Below, in pieces: positions 8,833 through 18,511 of a stretch of DNA of 24,569 bases. The notes below the pieces were generated by a model that saw only the letters and a list, made by a program, of their open reading frames with translations, made no database searches and had not been told where the DNA came from. The DNA lies in assembly GCA_965662175.1 (NCBI GenBank), contig CBFIGT010000009.1, positions 1-24,569 of the forward strand. The letters are read 5' to 3'. The stretch is from Arcobacter sp. Lineage in GTDB: Bacteria; Campylobacterota; Campylobacteria; Campylobacterales; Arcobacteraceae. The position numbers and the translations under genes are program-made. Numbering within the stretch: the first letter of the stretch is position 1; every line of letters starts with the position of its first letter.

Positions 8833-8915
8833 ATAAAATGTTAAGCCAAACTTATCGTGAGGTAAGGACGGAAAGCCACGGGTCTTTGTTTGTAAGATAG
8901 CCGGGTTACAAAATC
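8833..8915 (+). ncRNA. c-di-GMP-I (GEMM) riboswitch aptamer
   Basis: G-CC-AAA-[cttatc-GTGA-ggtaag]-GAC-GG-AAAGCC...GGGTCT...AGATAGCCGGGTTAC fits the GEMM consensus. It has a GNRA-capped P2 and a CC/GG covariation at the base of P2. Ligand-contact equivalents are G20 (8845), A47 (8872) and C92 (8909). Confidence 0.93.
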
Positions 8916-8993: not shown

Positions 8994-9179
8994 ATGTTTG
9001 ATTTTATTAAAAGAAGATTACAAAGTGATAGAGGTGCTATGGACAAAATTTTAGTAACTCTGCTTTTAGTTGTTGTTGGAATTGGTGCTGTTGTTGGATT
9101 AAGTACATGGATGAGCGGACAATCTGATGAAATTAAAACTGATGCTGAAACTACAGTTGATGCATTAAAAAATAACTAA
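8994..9179 (+). CDS. flp: Flp-type major pilin (atypical; no E+5/Y+6)
   Basis: 61 aa with a basic leader ending SDRG, then a hydrophobic helix. Strong AAGGAG SD. First gene of a tad cluster, next to a prepilin peptidase. Confidence 0.85.
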   Translation: MFDFIKRRLQSDRGAMDKILVTLLLVVVGIGAVVGLSTWMSGQSDEIKTDAETTVDALKNN

Positions 9180-9187
9180 CAAGAGAG

Positions 9188-9207
9188 TGTGAGCTTTTAA
9201 GCTCACA
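9188..9207 (+). promoter_or_regulatory. Intergenic stem-loop after flp
   Basis: tgtgagct / agctcaca 8-bp stem with a 4-nt loop and no U tract. It ends 6 nt before the tadV ATG. Confidence 0.65.
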
Positions 9208-9213
9208 ATCCTT

Positions 9214-9648
9214 ATGTTTAGTATAAGTTTCTATATTTTTTCACTGTTTTTGTCATATATTGATTACAAGAGTTTTAGAATACCAAATATAATTATTGCC
9301 ACAATGGCATTTTTCCTAATTGTATTTGGTATTTTTGAAGAGAAGATAGAGCTATTTTCATTTGTAATGCCTATTTTGGTTTTGCTATTTTTTATAGCTT
9401 TATTACTTTTAAATAAAAATGCTTCAGTTGGTGGTGGGGATATAAAGTACTATATGGTTATAGCACTTTATTTAAACCCTTTTTTGTTTGCAATTTTTTT
9501 GATTGTAACAGGATTGATGCAAACACTTGCATTGATTTTTAGACAATTTTTCCAAAAAAGAAGAGTTGTGGCTATGGGACCTGTAATTTTTGCTTCTGTA
9601 ATTATTACTGAGTTTTTAAACTATTTAGGAGTTATACCTAAGTTTTAA
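9214..9648 (+). CDS. tadV: Prepilin peptidase A24 (TadV/CpaA)
   Basis: Both catalytic Asp motifs are present (IDYKSFRIPN and GGGDIK). Short (144 aa), with no N-terminal Zn/methyltransferase domain, as in TadV. Confidence 0.9.
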   Translation: MFSISFYIFSLFLSYIDYKSFRIPNIIIATMAFFLIVFGIFEEKIELFSFVMPILVLLFFIALLLLNKNASVGGGDIKYYMVIALYLNPFLFAIFLIVTGLMQTLALIFRQFFQKRRVVAMGPVIFASVIITEFLNYLGVIPKF

Positions 9649-9665
9649 GTTATAAAGGTTGTATC

Positions 9666-10673
9666 ATGAAAAAAGCATTTATTGACCAAATTCTTCTTGG
9701 CTTTGTACTTTTTTCAGGAATATTTATCCTAATTGCTACTGTAAGTGATGATACAACTGTTAGAAACAAATACTATAACTTAAAAAAACTAAGTGACAAT
9801 GCAGCTTTATTTGCAGCAAATCATTATAATAAAAATGAAAATACCCAAGATGCCCAAGAGCTTGCAAAAGATATGTTAAGGGAAACTGCTCTTGGTTTAG
9901 AAGTTGTTGATAAAATTGATTTTATTTGGGATTTTGATAATTTACCAAATAGTGTGATTGCGAGAATTACAAATTATGAAGAAAATCTATTTTGGTATAG
10001 ACTTTTATCTCTAAATAGTTTTAATTTTGAAAATATTGAATCAAAAGCAAATATAACAAAAAGAGTATTAACAACTACTAGCAACTTTGCACCACTTGCA
10101 ATAAATAAATGTAATAGAGATGATTTAGTTGATCAAGCTGAACTTAGTTTTGAGTTTCATAGTTATAGTGAATTTTCAAACTATGATTTAAAAGCTTTTT
10201 ATGGGGTAACTAGTGAATGTACAAATCCAAGTGGTAACTCATTTTTTGCACACTATAAAAATATTTTTAATAATCCTACATTTGATGAGAATAATAACTT
10301 TTTTTCTGATTATAGTTTGGATGTTGAAGAGAGTGCTTTATGTTTGCCTGAAACAGATTTTGAAAATCCAAATACTGTTGACCCAAAACAACTTTATGAC
10401 AAACTAAAAAGATTTCCTATTGGCTCAAAAATGCAAATTGCCCTACTTGATTGTGATTCACTTGCAAGTAATATTAATGTAAATGAACTAATAACTGTTG
10501 AACTTTTAAGTGAGGCTTCTTGTACACAAGGATATTGGTCAAATAGTGAAAACTGGTTAAATAGAGTTTGGAATGAACAAAGTAATAGCTGCAATGGTGG
10601 AAACTATGATTATAAGTTATTAAAATTGGATTTAAAAATAGTTGATGAAAAGAAAATTATATTGGAATATTAG
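9666..10673 (+). CDS. TadG-like minor pilin / candidate adhesin
   Basis: Pilin-like N-terminus MKKA|FIDQILL, then a TM and LKKLSDNAALFAA (resembles the Tad-domain LQxAADxAALAAA). C-terminal domain has 6 Cys. Confidence 0.7.
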   Translation: MKKAFIDQILLGFVLFSGIFILIATVSDDTTVRNKYYNLKKLSDNAALFAANHYNKNENTQDAQELAKDMLRETALGLEVVDKIDFIWDFDNLPNSVIARITNYEENLFWYRLLSLNSFNFENIESKANITKRVLTTTSNFAPLAINKCNRDDLVDQAELSFEFHSYSEFSNYDLKAFYGVTSECTNPSGNSFFAHYKNIFNNPTFDENNNFFSDYSLDVEESALCLPETDFENPNTVDPKQLYDKLKRFPIGSKMQIALLDCDSLASNINVNELITVELLSEASCTQGYWSNSENWLNRVWNEQSNSCNGGNYDYKLLKLDLKIVDEKKIILEY

Positions 10674-10681
10674 GAAATATT

Positions 10682-12268
10682 ATGGAACTAAATGATTATA
10701 AATATATTTCAGATGTAAAAAAAGAGCTTCATTGCCAAGATGAGAGTATTCTTGAAATATTAAAACTTTTTGTATTGGTATCAAAACTACCTAAAATTGC
10801 CTTTTTAAAATATGATTCAAAATATAAATCTTTTAATTATAAATATAGTTTAGACTCAAATAAGATTTTAGAAGAGGATATATCATTAATAAATGCAAAA
10901 TATTCAAAAACACTCCAAATCGATGATATTATTTATGGAAAAATCGTATTTAATGAAGAGTTAGAAGAGACAATACTTATTAGCCAATTTTTAGAAAAAA
11001 TTACAAATGCTTTAAAAAAAGGTTTTGATATTGAAAATAGAATTTTATCAGAGGATGTTCCCCTTGATATTTTTATAGTTTCAGATAAACAGACAAAAGA
11101 TTTTTCAAAAAAACTAAAAGATAATTTACAATTAATTTTAAATGCTGAGATAAAAATAATATCTTCAATAGATGATATAAAAGAAAAGCTAAAAGTAAAA
11201 AATAGCAAAAGTCATATTATATATTGTGTAAAAAATGATGAACTTATAAAAGAGGACGAAATATATTTAAACTATTTAAATGAGTTTGTTATGGTAATAG
11301 GTCCAAATAATCATGCAATTTCACTAATTTGTGGGAAACTAAATATTCAAAAATATCTATCAATTGATGAGTTTTCTCCTCAAAAAGTAAAAGATATATT
11401 AATAGAGTATAAAAATACTATTTTAAATAAAGATAAACAAAAACATAAAATCATCTCTATAAATGGAATTTCAGGAGGAGTTGGAACTACAACAATAGCC
11501 ATGAATGTTTCTGATATGATTGCAAGTAATAATCCACAAAATAATGTGCTTTTTATTGATTTATCAACAACAAAAGCTGTGAGTAATATTTTTCTAACAC
11601 AAAATCCTTTACCTGATAAAACCATAATTGATTTAGTAAATATTGAAGAGTTTTCTATTCCTAAATATTTGGATAATGGATTAATGAAAATCAGTGAAAA
11701 CTTTTATAGTATAAATGGAATTCAAAAACATATTGATAGGGATTTAATGGAACAAGAGGTTTTTATAGAAAAACTTCTAAACTTTTTACTAAAATCAACT
11801 GAGTTTTTTAACTATATTATAATTGATACAGGTGAGGCTGATGCCTCAGCACTTAAAAGTACAGTTTATGATGTAGTTGATGATATTTGGGTTACTTTTC
11901 AAATGAATCTTCCACATATTTCAAAACTTAAAACATTTTATTCCCTTATAAAAAGAGCTGGACTTAAAGATAAACTGCTTTTTATGGTTAATAGATTTGA
12001 TTCTCAAAATGCCCTTTCAGTCACTGATGTTCAATCTATTTTAAATACCTCAAAAGATGATGATTTAAATTTTGAATTAAAAATACCAAATGATTATGAA
12101 AACTTAGGAAAATGTTGGAACTACTGTGAATTAGCAACAAAAAGTGCAAAAGACTCTATTTTTGTAAAAAAATTAGAGGAGATACTAGTTAAAAGAAATT
12201 TAATTATCAAAAATGAAAATGAGAAAAAAGAGAGATCAATATTTTCATTTTTTAAAAAGGATAAGTAG
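10682..12268 (+). CDS. tadZ: TadZ/CpaE-like pilus localisation ATPase with N-terminal extension
   Basis: ParA/MinD-like domain with degenerate Walker A GISGGVGTTT, VLFIDL, YIIIDTG and MVNRFD. Directly upstream of tadA. Confidence 0.8.
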   Translation: MELNDYKYISDVKKELHCQDESILEILKLFVLVSKLPKIAFLKYDSKYKSFNYKYSLDSNKILEEDISLINAKYSKTLQIDDIIYGKIVFNEELEETILISQFLEKITNALKKGFDIENRILSEDVPLDIFIVSDKQTKDFSKKLKDNLQLILNAEIKIISSIDDIKEKLKVKNSKSHIIYCVKNDELIKEDEIYLNYLNEFVMVIGPNNHAISLICGKLNIQKYLSIDEFSPQKVKDILIEYKNTILNKDKQKHKIISINGISGGVGTTTIAMNVSDMIASNNPQNNVLFIDLSTTKAVSNIFLTQNPLPDKTIIDLVNIEEFSIPKYLDNGLMKISENFYSINGIQKHIDRDLMEQEVFIEKLLNFLLKSTEFFNYIIIDTGEADASALKSTVYDVVDDIWVTFQMNLPHISKLKTFYSLIKRAGLKDKLLFMVNRFDSQNALSVTDVQSILNTSKDDDLNFELKIPNDYENLGKCWNYCELATKSAKDSIFVKKLEEILVKRNLIIKNENEKKERSIFSFFKKDK

Positions 12269-13854
12269 TGAGAAGTTTAAGAAAACTAATAGAGGAAGAA
12301 GAAGATAAAATCATTATAAATGAAGATGAGAATTTAGAAAACTCTATAAATAAAACAGAAGAGAAAATAAATAAAATCAAACAAAAAAGTTTTAGATTTG
12401 AGCTAAATTTTCCAGAGCTTTATCTTGATGAAAAACTATTAAATATTGCATATGTTATAAATGATAGTTTTATGCTAAACCTAAAATCTGATAAAAAAAT
12501 CACTAAAGAGAGTTTAGAAGAGGTTCTACCAGAATTTATTCTAACTTTTCCTGAAACAAAAAAACTCTCTAAAAATATATTAGAAGAGATTAAAAATTTT
12601 ATCATGAATAATCTAATTGGATATGGTCCTATTAGCACTATTTTTGATATTGCAAAAAATGGTTTAAATGATGTTATTGTAAATACAAAAGATTATATTG
12701 ATATTATTTATAATGGTAAAACAATACAAACACCATTTACTTTTAGAAGTGAAGAGGAGCTTAGAAAAGTTATTGATAAAATGCTTTCAGAAAATAATAG
12801 AAAAATAGATGAGGCTCATCCAATAATCTCTAGTAAATTAAATGATGGTTCTAGGGTTGAAGTTCAAATTCCACCAATTGCTGCAAATGATGGTTCATGT
12901 GTGACTATTAGAAAATTTAATGACCTTCCACTACTTTTAGAGTTTTTAATAGAGTCTGGTCAATTAGATTATAAAATGGCCTATTTTTTACTAAAAGTTG
13001 CCAAAGGAAAATGTAATATCATCGTCTCAGGTGGAACATCAAGTGGTAAAACAACATTTTTAAATGCAATAAGTAGATTTATTGATGACAATGAACAACT
13101 TATGGTAATTGAAGATACAAGAGAGATGCAACCTCAAATGCCCTGCCATAGTATTAGACAATATGAGTCTAGAATGGCAAATGAAGAGGGGAAAGGTGCA
13201 ATTACTCTTGATTTTTTACTCCGTTCTGCACTTCGGTCAAGTCCAAGAAGAATTATAGTTGGAGAGTGTAGAGGTCCTGAGATTGTCGTTATGTTAAATG
13301 CAATGAATACAGGACATCCAGGTTCTATGACTACAATCCATGCTGATAATACAAAAGAGGCAATAGTTAGGGTTGAAAATATGTATTTAGAAGCCAGACC
13401 TAGCTCAAACATAGGATTTATTAGAGCTCAAATAGCCTCAGCTATTGATTTAATAATTCAGCTTGTTCGTTTTCCTGATGGTAGTAGAAAAGTTATAAAA
13501 ATCTCTGAAGTTGAAAAAAGAATAGAAGATAATGGAGTTATGTCTTTAAATAATATCTTTGAATTCAAAAGAGATACAAGTGATATGAAAAAAACAAAAG
13601 GAACTTTTGAAATAGTTTCAACTCCAACTAGAACTATTGAGCAAATGAATATGTTTGGTGTAGATATTGATACAAGAGTATTTGACCCAAAATTTGAGAT
13701 GACAAAAGCTATGTTAATTGAGGAGTTAGAAAAAGATTTACCTGATAAGATGTGTGGATGGAGAGATGAGTTTTTAAATATATTTTTAGAAAAAGATCCA
13801 TCACTTCTACATAAATGGCCACATTTCCAAAATATGAAATTTTCAAGGGCGTAA
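12268..13854 (+). CDS. tadA: TadA/CpaF pilus assembly ATPase
   Basis: GYGPI, Walker A GGTSSGKTT, IEDTRE, Walker B RIIVGECRG and AMNTGHPGSMTTIHA. GTG start overlaps the tadZ stop. Confidence 0.95.
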   Translation: MRSLRKLIEEEEDKIIINEDENLENSINKTEEKINKIKQKSFRFELNFPELYLDEKLLNIAYVINDSFMLNLKSDKKITKESLEEVLPEFILTFPETKKLSKNILEEIKNFIMNNLIGYGPISTIFDIAKNGLNDVIVNTKDYIDIIYNGKTIQTPFTFRSEEELRKVIDKMLSENNRKIDEAHPIISSKLNDGSRVEVQIPPIAANDGSCVTIRKFNDLPLLLEFLIESGQLDYKMAYFLLKVAKGKCNIIVSGGTSSGKTTFLNAISRFIDDNEQLMVIEDTREMQPQMPCHSIRQYESRMANEEGKGAITLDFLLRSALRSSPRRIIVGECRGPEIVVMLNAMNTGHPGSMTTIHADNTKEAIVRVENMYLEARPSSNIGFIRAQIASAIDLIIQLVRFPDGSRKVIKISEVEKRIEDNGVMSLNNIFEFKRDTSDMKKTKGTFEIVSTPTRTIEQMNMFGVDIDTRVFDPKFEMTKAMLIEELEKDLPDKMCGWRDEFLNIFLEKDPSLLHKWPHFQNMKFSRA

Positions 13855-13856
13855 AA

Positions 13857-14789
13857 ATGTTTGATAATACTATTCTAGCTTTAATATTTATTATTCCAAT
13901 ACTATTTATAGTAACAGCATTTTTCATATATCAATATTATGACAAAATGAATAAACAAAAAACAATAATAAATATTTTATCTGAAAATAGTAATGAAATA
14001 ATTGATAAGAAAAAAAATAGAAAAATAGAGAGTAATATAGAGTTAAGTTGGCTCTCTAAAAAACTTCTTTCAGCAGGTTTTACCTCTTCATATGCTCAAA
14101 ATATCTTTATATTTATCTCTATAAGCTTTGGTTTATTAAGTGGAGTATTTGCCTTATATATTATAAAATCTCCCATTGCTTTTATTTTAATATTTATAAT
14201 ATTTTCATTTTTTCCTCTTTTACTTATAAAAAAACTTATTGCTTCAAGGGAAGAGGAGTTTAATTTTGGATTAAAAGCAATCATAGATAAAGTTACAAGT
14301 ATGATGAAAAGTGGAGTTGGATTTGAACAGGCTTTAAAAAAATCTGTTTTAACATCACGTTCAAAACTAACTAAAGATATTTTCAATATTTATTTAAATG
14401 AAAAAGATGTAATAGGTGAACAAAAAGCATTTGAAAAAATGTTTAAATTAATCCAATCAAAAGAGTTGAAAATATTTTATCTAACTATCTCAATAGGAAG
14501 ACAATCAGGTGGTAAATTTTCTAATACCTTAGAAAAACTAAGAAAAACACTTAGAGACCAAGGTGAAATAAAACAAGAGATTACCTCATCAACAAAAGAG
14601 ATAAAAATAGGAAGTTATATGATTATTGCTCTACTTATTTTTATTTATATTATGATGAATAATGCACTTGATGGAGCAATTCATCATCACTTTTTTACTA
14701 CAGCAAGTGGAAAACTTCAAATGTTATTTATAGTTTTATGGGTTAGTTTAGGTCTTTTTGTTAACTCATTAATGACAAAGGTTAAATGA
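13857..14789 (+). CDS. tadB: TadB (T2SSF-domain) inner-membrane platform protein
   Basis: Motifs MKSGVGFEQAL and GRQSGGKFSNTLEKL. Start placed at ATG 13857 just after the tadA stop; the ORF-track start 13815 overlaps tadA. Confidence 0.88.
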   Translation: MFDNTILALIFIIPILFIVTAFFIYQYYDKMNKQKTIINILSENSNEIIDKKKNRKIESNIELSWLSKKLLSAGFTSSYAQNIFIFISISFGLLSGVFALYIIKSPIAFILIFIIFSFFPLLLIKKLIASREEEFNFGLKAIIDKVTSMMKSGVGFEQALKKSVLTSRSKLTKDIFNIYLNEKDVIGEQKAFEKMFKLIQSKELKIFYLTISIGRQSGGKFSNTLEKLRKTLRDQGEIKQEITSSTKEIKIGSYMIIALLIFIYIMMNNALDGAIHHHFFTTASGKLQMLFIVLWVSLGLFVNSLMTKVK

Positions 14790-15622
14790 TGAATATATTT
14801 ATAATATTATTACCAGTTATTTTGGTTATTTTTTCACTTCTTGTTTGGTTTATCTATGATAGACAACAAAAACAAAAAAATATAATCTTACTATCAAAAC
14901 TAGATAATTTAACAATTATTGATAAACAAAATGAAGAAAAAAAAGAGAATAATGTTAATTTTAACCTAAAACTAATACAAGCTGGAATCACTTATAAAGA
15001 GTATAACGAGGGCAGATTAGCATTTTTAGTTTTGGGTTTAGTTTTGATTTTTGCTCTTCCAATATTTTTTAGTTTTACTATTGGTTTATTTGGAATTTTT
15101 ATTGGACTAATCTCTATTTTTTTTGGCGGAAAAATATATCTTATGATTTCAAAAGCAGAAAGAGTTGAAAAAATCAATAAAGACCTAGGTGTATTCTTGG
15201 ATTTAATCAATGTAATTTTAGAAGCAGGTGGTAGTTTAAAAAATGCATTTTTCCAAGTTTCAAGACGAGCCCATGGAATTATTGATGAAGAGTTATTAAA
15301 AGAGATAGCTATTTTAGAGTATGAAATGACAAACTACTCTACAAAAAAAGCTTATGAAAATCTCAAAAAAAGAGTTGACTCTGAGGATATGGACAAAATA
15401 GTTGACTTTTTGATTTTAAGTGAAGAGACGGGGATTGGTGTAAAAAATATTTTTTCAACTCAAAGTGAAGAGATGAGACAAGAAAAATTTTACCAAATAA
15501 AAGGAAAAGTAAATACATTAAATATGTATCTTATGGTTATTATTTTTGTATTTGTACTTCCAGCTTTAGGAGCATTTATAGTGTTTCCTATGATGGCTGG
15601 TAATTTAAAACTTGGAATTTAA
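14786..15622 (+). CDS. tadC: TadC (T2SSF-domain) inner-membrane platform protein
   Basis: Motifs LIQAG, FLDLINVILEAGGSLKNA, SEETGIGV and FVLPA. ATGA overlap with tadB. Confidence 0.88.
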   Translation: MMNIFIILLPVILVIFSLLVWFIYDRQQKQKNIILLSKLDNLTIIDKQNEEKKENNVNFNLKLIQAGITYKEYNEGRLAFLVLGLVLIFALPIFFSFTIGLFGIFIGLISIFFGGKIYLMISKAERVEKINKDLGVFLDLINVILEAGGSLKNAFFQVSRRAHGIIDEELLKEIAILEYEMTNYSTKKAYENLKKRVDSEDMDKIVDFLILSEETGIGVKNIFSTQSEEMRQEKFYQIKGKVNTLNMYLMVIIFVFVLPALGAFIVFPMMAGNLKLGI

Positions 15623-15632
15623 AGGATTTAAA

Positions 15633-16793
15633 ATGAGATTTAATAAAAACTTAGCAATTATTATGGTTTTAGTTTCACTACTACTATCAGCACTTATGCT
15701 CTCTTTTTATTTATATAACTTAAATAAAAAAACTGCTCAAAAAAACAATCAATTAGTTAGTGTTTATATTGCAAAAACTGATATTGAGAAAGACTCTATT
15801 ATAAAAGAGGAAAATCTCTCACAAACACAAATCGCAAAACAGTTCTTGTTAAATAAACCTCTTACAAAAAATGAGATTTTGGCAAAATATACAAAAGAGA
15901 AAATCTATAAAAATGAGATTTTTATAAAAGAGAAATTATCAACAAAAATAGAGCATGAAAAATCATATTTATTGGATTATAAATATAGCTCTTATAATAT
16001 GCCTTTTACTCTTTTTCAAAATCCAAACTATACTTTAAATCCAAATGATAAAATCAATATCGTTTCTGTTTATGTAAAAGAGAATACTCAAATAAAAAAA
16101 GATGAAACAAATCAATATAGTGTTCAATATATAGCTTCAAATATAAATGTCTTAGGTTTTATTAGAGAGGGGAAAGCTAGTGATAAAACAATTGAGAGAC
16201 GGCTTATTAAAAAAGTTGTTAAGAAAAAAGTTATAGAAGAAGAGATAGAGATAAAAGCTGAAGAGCTTGTATTAGACCTGCCTAAAAAAGTTTTATTAAA
16301 TATTTTAAATGATTATAATAAAGGGAAACAACTTTGGATGAGTATTGCAAAAGATGGTACTCCTAACACTAATATTGAAAATAAAAAAACTGAAGAAACT
16401 CCAAAAAAAGAGATAGTTGTTAAAAAAAGTTCAAAACCAAAAAACTATCCAATAATTTGGTATAAACCTCAAAATAACTATATAACTAAAACAGCCACAA
16501 TAGAGTATGCAAATGACCCAAAACTTAAAAAATCAAAAACAACTACAATAAAAAATAGTTTAGAAAATAGTTGTTCTCAAAAAGAAAAACTACTGCTTGT
16601 AAAATCATTTAGAGCAAATATAAGAAATGGTGCTTCTTTAGAGAGTGAGATTTACAAAACCGTATCAAAAAACTATGTTTTACCATATATTTATAAAATA
16701 GGTTCTTGGTATAAATTGTGTGATAATAGATATATTCATAAAAATATTGTTAATGAAATATCTTTAATGGACTTAAATAAAAAAGAGAAATAA
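15633..16793 (+). CDS. rcpC: RcpC/CpaB alignment protein (SAF + RcpC) with C-terminal SH3b-like domain
   Basis: N-terminal TM, SAF-like VYIAKTDIEKDSIIKEENL, RcpC-like LNPNDKINIV...NINVLG, and tail ANIRNGAS...GSWYKL...YIH. ATG 15633 follows an AAAGGA SD. Confidence 0.75.
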   Translation: MRFNKNLAIIMVLVSLLLSALMLSFYLYNLNKKTAQKNNQLVSVYIAKTDIEKDSIIKEENLSQTQIAKQFLLNKPLTKNEILAKYTKEKIYKNEIFIKEKLSTKIEHEKSYLLDYKYSSYNMPFTLFQNPNYTLNPNDKINIVSVYVKENTQIKKDETNQYSVQYIASNINVLGFIREGKASDKTIERRLIKKVVKKKVIEEEIEIKAEELVLDLPKKVLLNILNDYNKGKQLWMSIAKDGTPNTNIENKKTEETPKKEIVVKKSSKPKNYPIIWYKPQNNYITKTATIEYANDPKLKKSKTTTIKNSLENSCSQKEKLLLVKSFRANIRNGASLESEIYKTVSKNYVLPYIYKIGSWYKLCDNRYIHKNIVNEISLMDLNKKEK

Positions 16794-17230
16794 TGAAAAC
16801 AGAAAAAAATAGTACAAAAGCTGCTTATGTAGAAAATATCATTTTATGGATTGTTCTATTTGTAGGATTTGTAACACTATTCTTTTTTATTGTTGAGTAT
16901 TCTGTTACAGTTAAAGTAATAGATAAAACTGATTCATTAAGTGATTATGGAGCTAGAGCTATATCTTTAGGAAATAGTGAAAGTGATGTAGTAAATGGTT
17001 TAAATCAAATAAAAGGTGATAGTTTTAACACTATTACTATTGATAATTTAACATGTAGTGAAAATGTAGGAGTTGAAAACTATCAAGTTATTTTTAATAC
17101 TTATACAACGTATGCAAACAATTTTTTAGTTGGTCAAGGGGAAAATAACATTCATGCAAAAAGTGTTGTTTTTAATGAAACAAGCAGTACTGAAAAAGTC
17201 TGTAATTTATATATTACTATTGGAAATTAG
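16793..17230 (+). CDS. TadE/TadF-like minor pilin
   Basis: KAA|YVENIIL plus TM, then SDYGARAISL (TadE GAR motif). Two Cys. TAATG overlap with rcpC. Confidence 0.72.
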   Translation: MKTEKNSTKAAYVENIILWIVLFVGFVTLFFFIVEYSVTVKVIDKTDSLSDYGARAISLGNSESDVVNGLNQIKGDSFNTITIDNLTCSENVGVENYQVIFNTYTTYANNFLVGQGENNIHAKSVVFNETSSTEKVCNLYITIGN

Positions 17231-17239
17231 GAGTTTATC

Positions 17240-18511
17240 ATGAAAAATTTATTTAAAATACTATTTGGTCTTTTTATACTTAATATTTTTATTTTTGCAA
17301 ATACAAATATTATAGAACAAAAAGATTTTGAAAATAGTACCATCTCAATATCTTCAAATTCTTATAAAATATTGGAGTTTAAAAAAGAGATAAAAAATAT
17401 CAAACTTACTGATAGTAATAAAATATTGGTAGAGTTTATAGAAAAAACAGCTAAACCTTTTAGCCTTTTAAAAGTATTAGGAAAATTAAGTGGAAATGCC
17501 AATGCATTTATAACTTTTCAAGATAATTCAACTATGCAAATAGATTTTAATGTAGTTCCAAATCTAAAAAGCCTTATTAATTTAACACAAAAAGAGTATC
17601 CAAATATTAAAATTTCTCAAATTGATGACTCTATTATATTAAAAGGAAGTGTTGAAAATGAAAAAGAGAAAGAGAGTATATTTGATATTTTTAGAAAAGC
17701 AAATATAGATTCAGATAAAAAAATCATAAATTTATTAGATATAAATAATCCAACAAAAATGGTAAAAGTAAAACTTTATGTTGTTGAAATCAACAATAAA
17801 AAAGGTAAAACTATCAAAAACAACTGGTCTTTAACAGGAAGTAATAGTTCTATCTCCACATCTATAAGCTCAACTATGCTAAGTGCTGTAACCTTAAGTG
17901 GAGGAATAACAGCCGTTGCAAATAGTTTAGGTGGTGATTTTAATGTAGGACTTACATTAAAATATCTAGAAAATAATAATGTAGCAAAAATTCTTGATGA
18001 AACCACATTAATTACCTTAGAGAAAAACAAATCTCAATTCCACTCAGGTGGAATTTTAAATGTAAAAGTTTCATCAACTGATATTACAAGTTTAGAAAGA
18101 ATAGAGTATGGTTTAAAAATGGATATAAATGTACAAGAGATTTTAAATAATAGATATATAAAACTTCTTGTTCGTACTGAATCATCAGTTTTAGATACAT
18201 TAAATGTAGTTGATGGAATCCCCTCAATAAAAAATAAAACAGTGGATACAAATGTTATAGTTGGAGATAAATCAACTGTTGTATTAGGTGGTTTAGTGAA
18301 TATTGAAGATACAAAAATAGAAGAAAAAGTTCCTTTATTAGGTGATATTCCTGTGATTGGAAATATATTTAGAAGTACAGATAAACACTCAGATGATGTG
18401 GAGTTAGTCTTTTTTATAACACCTGAAATAATAGACCCAGCTAACAATAATCAAAAAAATATTTTAGATGAAAAAAGTGAATTTAGAAAAAAAAGAGTTT
18501 TAGAAAAGTAG
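17240..18511 (+). CDS. rcpA: RcpA/CpaC outer-membrane secretin
   Basis: Sec signal peptide, N-domain, BON-like IILKGSV...IINLL, and secretin C-terminal VLGGLV...KVPLLGDIPVIGNIFRS...ELVFFITPEII. Confidence 0.93.
   Translation: MKNLFKILFGLFILNIFIFANTNIIEQKDFENSTISISSNSYKILEFKKEIKNIKLTDSNKILVEFIEKTAKPFSLLKVLGKLSGNANAFITFQDNSTMQIDFNVVPNLKSLINLTQKEYPNIKISQIDDSIILKGSVENEKEKESIFDIFRKANIDSDKKIINLLDINNPTKMVKVKLYVVEINNKKGKTIKNNWSLTGSNSSISTSISSTMLSAVTLSGGITAVANSLGGDFNVGLTLKYLENNNVAKILDETTLITLEKNKSQFHSGGILNVKVSSTDITSLERIEYGLKMDINVQEILNNRYIKLLVRTESSVLDTLNVVDGIPSIKNKTVDTNVIVGDKSTVVLGGLVNIEDTKIEEKVPLLGDIPVIGNIFRSTDKHSDDVELVFFITPEIIDPANNNQKNILDEKSEFRKKRVLEK

Follow-up and report, generated by a model that had tools for sequence, protein, structure and literature searches.

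The closest described systems are the Tad pili of Caulobacter crescentus (the Cpa system, with PilA, CpaA and CpaF) and of Aggregatibacter (Flp1, TadV, TadE and TadF), in which a major pilin of about 60 residues without a globular head is accompanied by minor pilins and the motif reads G↓xxxxE-Y/F (the arrow marks the cut). In one passage of PMC10710030, Glu5 is called absolutely conserved in bacterial type IV pilins, and a passage of PMC11067988 describes the Glu/Tyr pair as conserved across Tad pilins, "implying a universal mechanism"; a section of PMC10191384 has Glu5 present "often, but not always". We analyzed a stretch of 24,569 nt, here called the window, from the Arcobacteraceae genome of an Arcobacter sp. 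(GCA_965662175.1, contig CBFIGT010000009.1; genome 2.6 Mb). By its gene content, the region at 8994-18511, with ten closely spaced open reading frames (ORFs) in one orientation, is a bacterial Tad (type IVc) pilus operon, complete yet divergent, because it combines a CpaF-type ATPase, a prepilin peptidase with both catalytic Asp residues and the set of machinery genes (Table 1). The machine parts are the same as in Caulobacter and Aggregatibacter, and here too a headless major pilin of about 60 residues stands beside minor pilins. Unlike those systems, the window pilins lack G↓xxxxE-Y/F; their acid lies three residues after Gly or Ala and is followed by Lys, Gln or Asn instead of Tyr or Phe. 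In all three subunits the acid would thus sit about two positions nearer the predicted cut than in studied Tad pili, which bends a supposedly universal rule of bacterial pilins. The "Flp-like" pilins of Gram-positive tad loci, as portrayed in a passage of Imam et al. 2011 (PMC3244431), are likewise small and depart from the Flp motif; what sets them apart from Flp is the lack of Tyr+6, and the window pilins have their acid at +3.

A preliminary description of this DNA had given the N-termini of the three pilins and their shared acid register, and both read from the ORFs exactly as stated: MFDFIKRRLQSDRG-AMDKILV in the Flp-like ORF (DRG↓AMDKILV), MKKA-FIDQILL in the large minor pilin and MKTEKNSTKAA-YVENIIL in the small one. 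A hydrophobic stretch of about 20 residues follows the motif in each, and all three fit the definition of a class III signal peptide, in which Gly or Ala closes a hydrophilic leader and 20-25 largely hydrophobic residues come next. The shared form is [K/R]-[G/A]↓x-hydrophobic-[D/E]-[K/Q/N]-I-hydrophobic, in which the predicted cut gives the acid its "+3" label. Stop-to-stop frames of 40 amino acids (aa) or more number 15,497 in the whole genome, and these were searched for a loose version of the motif ([GA]-x-hydrophobic-[DE]-polar-3 hydrophobic, with an uncharged hydrophobic stretch after it). Only six frames contain it: three are the pilin ORFs of the operon, and the other three are internal occurrences that lack a K/R-G/A leader and are unconvincing. 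The occurrence of the motif in all three pilins is more than chance.

The motif is conserved among related loci, which are designated by L numbers. A protein scan with TadA gave 56 loci, of which 53 come from Arcobacteraceae-like genomes (67-83% identity). When every ORF of these loci was searched by BLAST with the three pilins, there were 51 matches for the Flp-like protein, 43 for the large pilin and 41 for the small pilin. N-terminal segments were anchored on the acid and dereplicated before counting; four large-pilin matches could not be anchored, and two rows were cross-matches to the small-pilin family. The acid is Asp or Glu in 34 of 35 distinct Flp-like segments, in 35 of 39 large-pilin segments (the others having Asn three times and Gly once) and in all 40 small-pilin segments. 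Three residues before it stands Gly in 31/31 leader-bearing Flp-like segments, Ala (38) or Gly (1) in the large pilin and Ala (38) or Gly (2) in the small pilin. The residue after the acid is Lys or Arg in 33/35 Flp segments and mostly Gln or Asn in both minor pilin families. Across 42 sequences of the Flp-like family, G14, A15, D17, V21, L23 and W39 are invariant. The preliminary description had proposed a look at homologues as a check, and this came out in its favor, with Asp or Glu kept at the +3 position in nearly all copies of the three families over about 40 loci.

A sister clade has related Flp-like and TadE-like proteins and no acid. Its four loci (L074-L077) come from a second family of the same order, their TadA is 56% identical to that of the window, and they hold the same machine parts arranged differently, flp following the secretin gene. 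They differ from the window type in having one residue fewer between the Gly and the helix core, and in place of the large minor pilin they have a pilin of about 90 aa followed by a protein of 550-590 aa with a Sec-type signal. The Flp reads K-G-M-S-G-V-L-V-A-L-L-L, the ∼90-aa pilin, encoded after the peptidase, R-[K/N/R]-[G/A]-S-A-A-[I/L]-V-P-L-L, and the TadE-like protein G-[M/L/F]-[G/P/A]-Q-I-M-A; none of the three has an acid near its N-terminus in any of the four loci. At the loci that hold all three pilin families of the window type (n = 32), by comparison, every copy carries the acid in 27. Since the acid is in all copies at 27/32 loci and absent from all three proteins at 4/4 sister loci, its state is set per system and not per gene, present or absent together in all pilins of a locus, as would be expected if the pilins co-evolved with one another or with a common partner. 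This joint switching supports the co-evolved pilin subclass that the preliminary description had proposed. In a passage of PMC11067988, the Glu/Tyr pair at +5/+6 of Caulobacter PilA forms a hydrogen-bond network that is crucial to assembly and not to processing; the co-evolved partner is therefore more likely to be the filament or the platform than the peptidase, and the special peptidase specificity that had also been suggested is not needed. A quick tree of TadA joins the acid-at-+3 loci and the acid-less loci in one clade (Shimodaira-Hasegawa-like approximate likelihood ratio test support of 100), apart from the canonical Tad loci and three outgroups; inside this clade the tree gives the acid-less loci no firm place and does not tell a loss of the acid from a gain. 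The canonical Tad loci of the phylum, with TadA about 40% identical to that of the window, read G↓VTAIEY in Flp and have Glu five residues after Gly in the TadE-type and minor pilins.

Standard models under-annotate such pilins, as the preliminary description had foreseen. The Pfam models Flp_Fap, TadE (PF07811), Tad (PF13400), Class_IIIsignal and Pilin_N gave no match to the three window pilins at E ≤ 1, and neither did the NCBIfam pilin models. Flp_Fap (PF04964) found nothing in the whole 2.6-Mb genome and nothing in the 42 Flp-like relatives at E ≤ 10, a threshold at which Pilin_N (PF07790) also matched neither the window Flp-like protein nor these relatives. PF13400 gave weak matches to 13/41 members of the small-pilin family (best E 2.4e-4), the window copy not being among them, and Glu at +5 is absent from the window minor pilins. 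Public records give the name "hypothetical protein" to both the Flp-like and the large pilin, some small-pilin orthologues are labeled "TadE/TadG family type IV pilus assembly protein" by NCBI, and one acid-less Flp is labeled "Flp pilus assembly pilin Flp" by JGI. The "TadE/TadG" labels of the minor pilins are best taken as provisional, drawn from architecture, context and the weak PF13400 matches. Of 1.84 billion proteins, a profile of the Flp-like family reached no more than 115 representatives at E ≤ 0.001. A leader followed by G/A-x-hydrophobic-D/E is present in 62 of them, and 28 are leaderless, 25 starting M-D/E-K and three having no acid (two of these begin M-S-G). The remainder comprise 14 acid-less proteins with K-G-[M/I/L]-[S/N]-G-V, three with an archaeal-looking G/A-I-S-P-I-L (profile E about 1e-4), one with K-G-Q-I-G-Q and seven of other types.

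We favor the reading that this is an acid-at-+3 Tad system in which an acid-polar pair replaces Glu5-Tyr6/Phe6, and we give this reading as a whole a probability of roughly 65%. To the observed motif, conservation, co-variation, machinery and intact catalytic Asp residues it adds a predicted cleavage site, a putative role for the acid and a proposed filament packing. The prepilins would insert with the basic leader on the cytoplasmic side, and the operon's own short A24 aspartyl peptidase would cut directly after the Gly or Ala. The mature subunits would then begin two residues nearer the conserved acid than canonical Flp and TadE, and the pair (D-K in Flp and, in both minor pilins, D/E-Q/N) would take the role of Glu5 with Tyr6 or Phe6, linking neighboring N-termini through polar contacts in the core of the filament while the CpaF-TadB/C machine assembles it. 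The altered filament packing suggested in the preliminary description is plausible. The "two-residue shift" of the preliminary description is indeed what a profile-profile alignment draws: hhalign of the Flp-like family against the canonical Flp of the phylum matches G to G, leaves a 2-residue gap and sets D opposite E and K opposite Y. The alignment is not significant, however (Prob 0.67%, E 0.084).

The position of the cut decides the register, and a site right after the Gly or Ala appears the best candidate. According to a passage of PMC10191384, Gly or Ala is the last residue of a class III leader, and the cut falls directly behind it. In all three families the best conserved part of the leader is a G/A with Lys or Arg before it, and with G/A at -1 the families align gap-free as x-hydrophobic-acid-polar-I. 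One Flp relative reads G-L-V-D, where only the Gly can be -1. In the minor pilins the cut cannot fall later, because the next residue is bulky (F/I/Y/V). A cut two residues upstream of the G/A would restore the acid at +5, and its sole motive is to keep the canonical E+5 rule. It would put E/D/Q/N at -1 in Flp and K in the minor pilins, which the pertinent section of PMC10191384 lists for no known A24 peptidase, leave many minor pilins with a leader of just two residues and deprive the leaderless Flp paralogs of four mature N-terminal residues; we consider it highly improbable. These paralogs include second Flp-like genes at L003, L051 and L048 (Table 1), each with in-frame stops just upstream, and at L003 a Shine-Dalgarno AGGAG precedes the ATG. 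Because they start at the M-D/E-K point, the functional N-terminus should lie at or next to it, which again argues against the upstream site.

The leaderless paralogs are also compatible with a cut one residue later in Flp, G-A↓M-D-K, which would place the acid at +2 in Flp and at +3 in the minor pilins, with no single exact register. The 25 acid-bearing ones among the 115 representatives begin at exactly that Met, the acid-less relatives would be cut as K-G↓M-S-G, matching the two leaderless proteins that begin M-S-G, Ala is accepted at -1 according to a passage of PMC10191384, and the residue after the Gly is small (A/S/G) in nearly all Flp relatives. The gap-free alignment of the three families with Gly at -1 speaks against this site, as does the G-L-V-D relative, in which Leu is impossible at -1, and a conserved Met codon is also the simplest place for a truncated start to arise. 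On balance we find a G-A↓M cut doubtful.

A separate question is whether the acid corresponds to Glu5 at all. The pilins could instead be archaeal-like and Glu5-less, the acid being a lineage-specific polar cap at the membrane interface that is no displaced Glu5 and is not needed for assembly. Archaeal Iho670/Pilin_N pilins share with the window the [K/R]-G end of the leader, the lack of Glu5 and a similar hydrophobic helix ending T/Y-W. Among solved structures, the Flp-like profile finds its best match in the hydrophobic helix of the pilin Iho670 (3j1r, E 5e-4), which has no such acid, although helix-only matches are prone to composition effects and this one could owe much to composition. The profile also reaches the three G/A-I-S-P-I-L proteins, Tad pili pack like archaeal pili according to a passage of PMC10710030, and the sister clade lacks the acid in all its pilins. 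However, archaeal pilins have S-P at +2/+3 where the window has a hydrophobic residue and an acid, no Flp-like member matches Pilin_N, and the window machinery is clearly bacterial, CpaF-type and with a secretin. The near-invariance of the acid in three separate gene families over about 40 loci points to strong selection. We regard this archaeal-like, Glu5-less reading as unlikely. The statement in the preliminary description that archaeal pilins lack E+5 fared unevenly: a passage of PMC10710030 agrees with it, whereas one in PMC11067988 has the Glu conserved there in archaeal type IV pilins too.

Several observations weigh against the acid-at-+3 reading itself. Asn or Gly replaces the acid in the large pilin at four of the 32 complete loci (L004, L030, L035 and L041), and Asn replaces it in the leaderless second Flp of L048, the fifth exception among these loci. 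The sister clade apparently works without the acid, which may therefore not be essential to this type of machine. The homology of D+3 with E+5, lacking statistical support, stays a suggestion, and the start of the leaderless paralogs at the Met after G-A, the G↓M-S-G of the acid-less relatives and the Iho670 match count on the same side.

Only tentatively do we extend the argument to the proposal that a Campylobacterales Tad lineage gave up the Glu5-Tyr6 core, one branch using an acid-polar pair two to three residues from the N-terminus and the sister branch being acid-free, with part of the lineage using leaderless Flp paralogs that enter the pilus without a peptidase step. If true, neither the Tad filament register nor the "universal" Glu/Tyr hydrogen-bond network would be universal, and peptidase-independent pilins would exist. 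A bacterial CpaF-driven Tad lineage with an apparently displaced acid and an acid-free sister offers natural variants for testing what the acid does, be it platform docking, charge neutralization or filament register. We found no account in the literature of the motif, of this locus type or of Tad pilins in Arcobacteraceae, and the supplementary alignments S1 of PMC11067988 and PMC10710030 may show further exceptions; for Campylobacterota, a TAD cluster is merely mentioned in a Sulfurospirillum.

Table 1. Features of the Tad locus in the window, and leaderless Flp-like paralogs of three related loci (coordinates of the latter are those of the respective locus)
Feature	Coordinates	Strand	Details
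c-di-GMP-I-GGC type riboswitch aptamer	8836..8914	+	Rfam RF03167, 63.6 bits (gathering 59), E 4.3e-13, full model 1-80
Flp-like major prepilin, 61 aa	8994..9179	+	G14 9033-9035; D17 9042-9044; hydrophobic helix I19-W39
Stem-loop, perfect 8-bp stem	9188-9207		
Short prepilin peptidase (TadV/CpaA-like), 144 aa	9214..9648	+	Peptidase_A24 E 1.8e-9; without methyltransferase domain
Large minor pilin ("TadG-like"), 335 aa	9666..10673	+	A4 9675-9677; D7 9684-9686; no Pfam match
TadZ/CpaE-like ParA/MinD-type ATPase	10682..12268	+	AAA_31 E 2.1e-7, residues 256-384
TadA/CpaF extension ATPase	12268..13854	+	T2SSE E 2.3e-45
TadB-like platform protein	13815..14789	+	T2SSF E 2.6e-9
TadC-like platform protein	14786..15622	+	T2SSF E 1.5e-8
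CpaB/RcpC-like periplasmic protein	15612..16793	+	TIGR03177 pilus_cpaB E 6.8e-6, under curated cut-off
Small minor pilin ("TadE-like"), 145 aa	16793..17230	+	A11 16823-16825; E14 16832-16834
Secretin (RcpA/CpaC-like)	17240..18511	+	Secretin E 3.4e-34
Leaderless second Flp-like paralog, L003	2170-2313		start M-E/D/N-K-I/V-L-V
Leaderless second Flp-like paralog, L051	2138-2293		start M-E/D/N-K-I/V-L-V
Leaderless second Flp-like paralog, L048	2391-2528		start M-E/D/N-K-I/V-L-V

The features that mark a Tad/type IVc system are all found in the operon: a CpaF-type ATPase, TadB and TadC as separate adjacent ORFs with one T2SSF domain each, a short A24 peptidase with two catalytic Asp residues, and the secretin, CpaB/RcpC and TadZ/CpaE accessories. 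Among solved structures, the best match of the window TadA is Caulobacter CpaF (232.9 bits, E 6e-68), well above the archaeal and VirB11 relatives (116.5 bits for archaeal 2oap, 110 bits for FlaI). In the peptidase, D17 and G73-G74-G75-D76, which include both catalytic Asp residues, are invariant across 29 orthologues; the peptidase family matched no solved structure at E ≤ 10. No TadD-like lipoprotein was seen in the window, the G+C content of which is low, about 0.23-0.33.

Models of the minor pilins were built with AlphaFold2 from family alignments. The small pilin is predicted to consist of a helix at residues 9-58 and a four-stranded sheet (predicted local distance difference test score, pLDDT, 90.2), and the large pilin of a helix at residues 2-57 followed by a beta-rich head (pLDDT 83.6); both models thus show the long N-terminal helix on a beta head that is the type IV pilin architecture. 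No solved chain resembled them above background: Foldseek returned nothing at E ≤ 0.001, and the highest VIA score was Z 5.5, pilins reaching only Z 3.8-4.0. C88 and C137 are invariant in all 41 small-pilin sequences, the acid-less clade included, and probably form a disulfide in the head domain. The placement and size of the large pilin vary among loci: in L009 and L010 no gene for it was found in the interval from the peptidase gene to tadZ, it lies elsewhere in the locus on the opposite strand in L028 and L032, and in Halarcobacter-type loci the protein has about 800 aa, compared with about 340 aa.

Of 401 sampled genomes of the phylum, nine have the Flp-like family, namely the window genome, 3/23 others of its family and 5/34 of a second family of the same order. 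The other twelve families gave 0/343 genomes with it and the three further species sampled from the genus of the window gave 0/3; the locus looks like a patchy, accessory operon. Canonical Flp (PF04964) is present in 8/401 of the same genomes (6/118 and 2/158 in two other families) and in none from the two families that carry the variant. Canonical loci of those two other families (L098-L101) comprise Flp, tadV, rcpC, secretin, tadZ, tadA-C, a lipoprotein and tadE/F/G with E+5.

The operon is preceded by a riboswitch aptamer of the cyclic di-GMP (c-di-GMP) I-GGC type, 80 nt upstream of the flp start. Nine related loci were tested for aptamers of the c-di-GMP-I clan: one lies just upstream of flp in three (L010, L013 and L031), and none was found at the gathering score in L003, L007, L012, L018, L041 and L074. 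At the window locus the gene of a Tad pilin is thereby joined with a riboswitch of the c-di-GMP type, in a group among whose members are animal-associated and marine colonizers of surfaces. Directly after the flp stop codon lies a perfect 8-bp stem-loop with no T tract on the + strand, a hairpin that may act as a transcript-stabilizing or attenuating element between flp and the rest of the operon.

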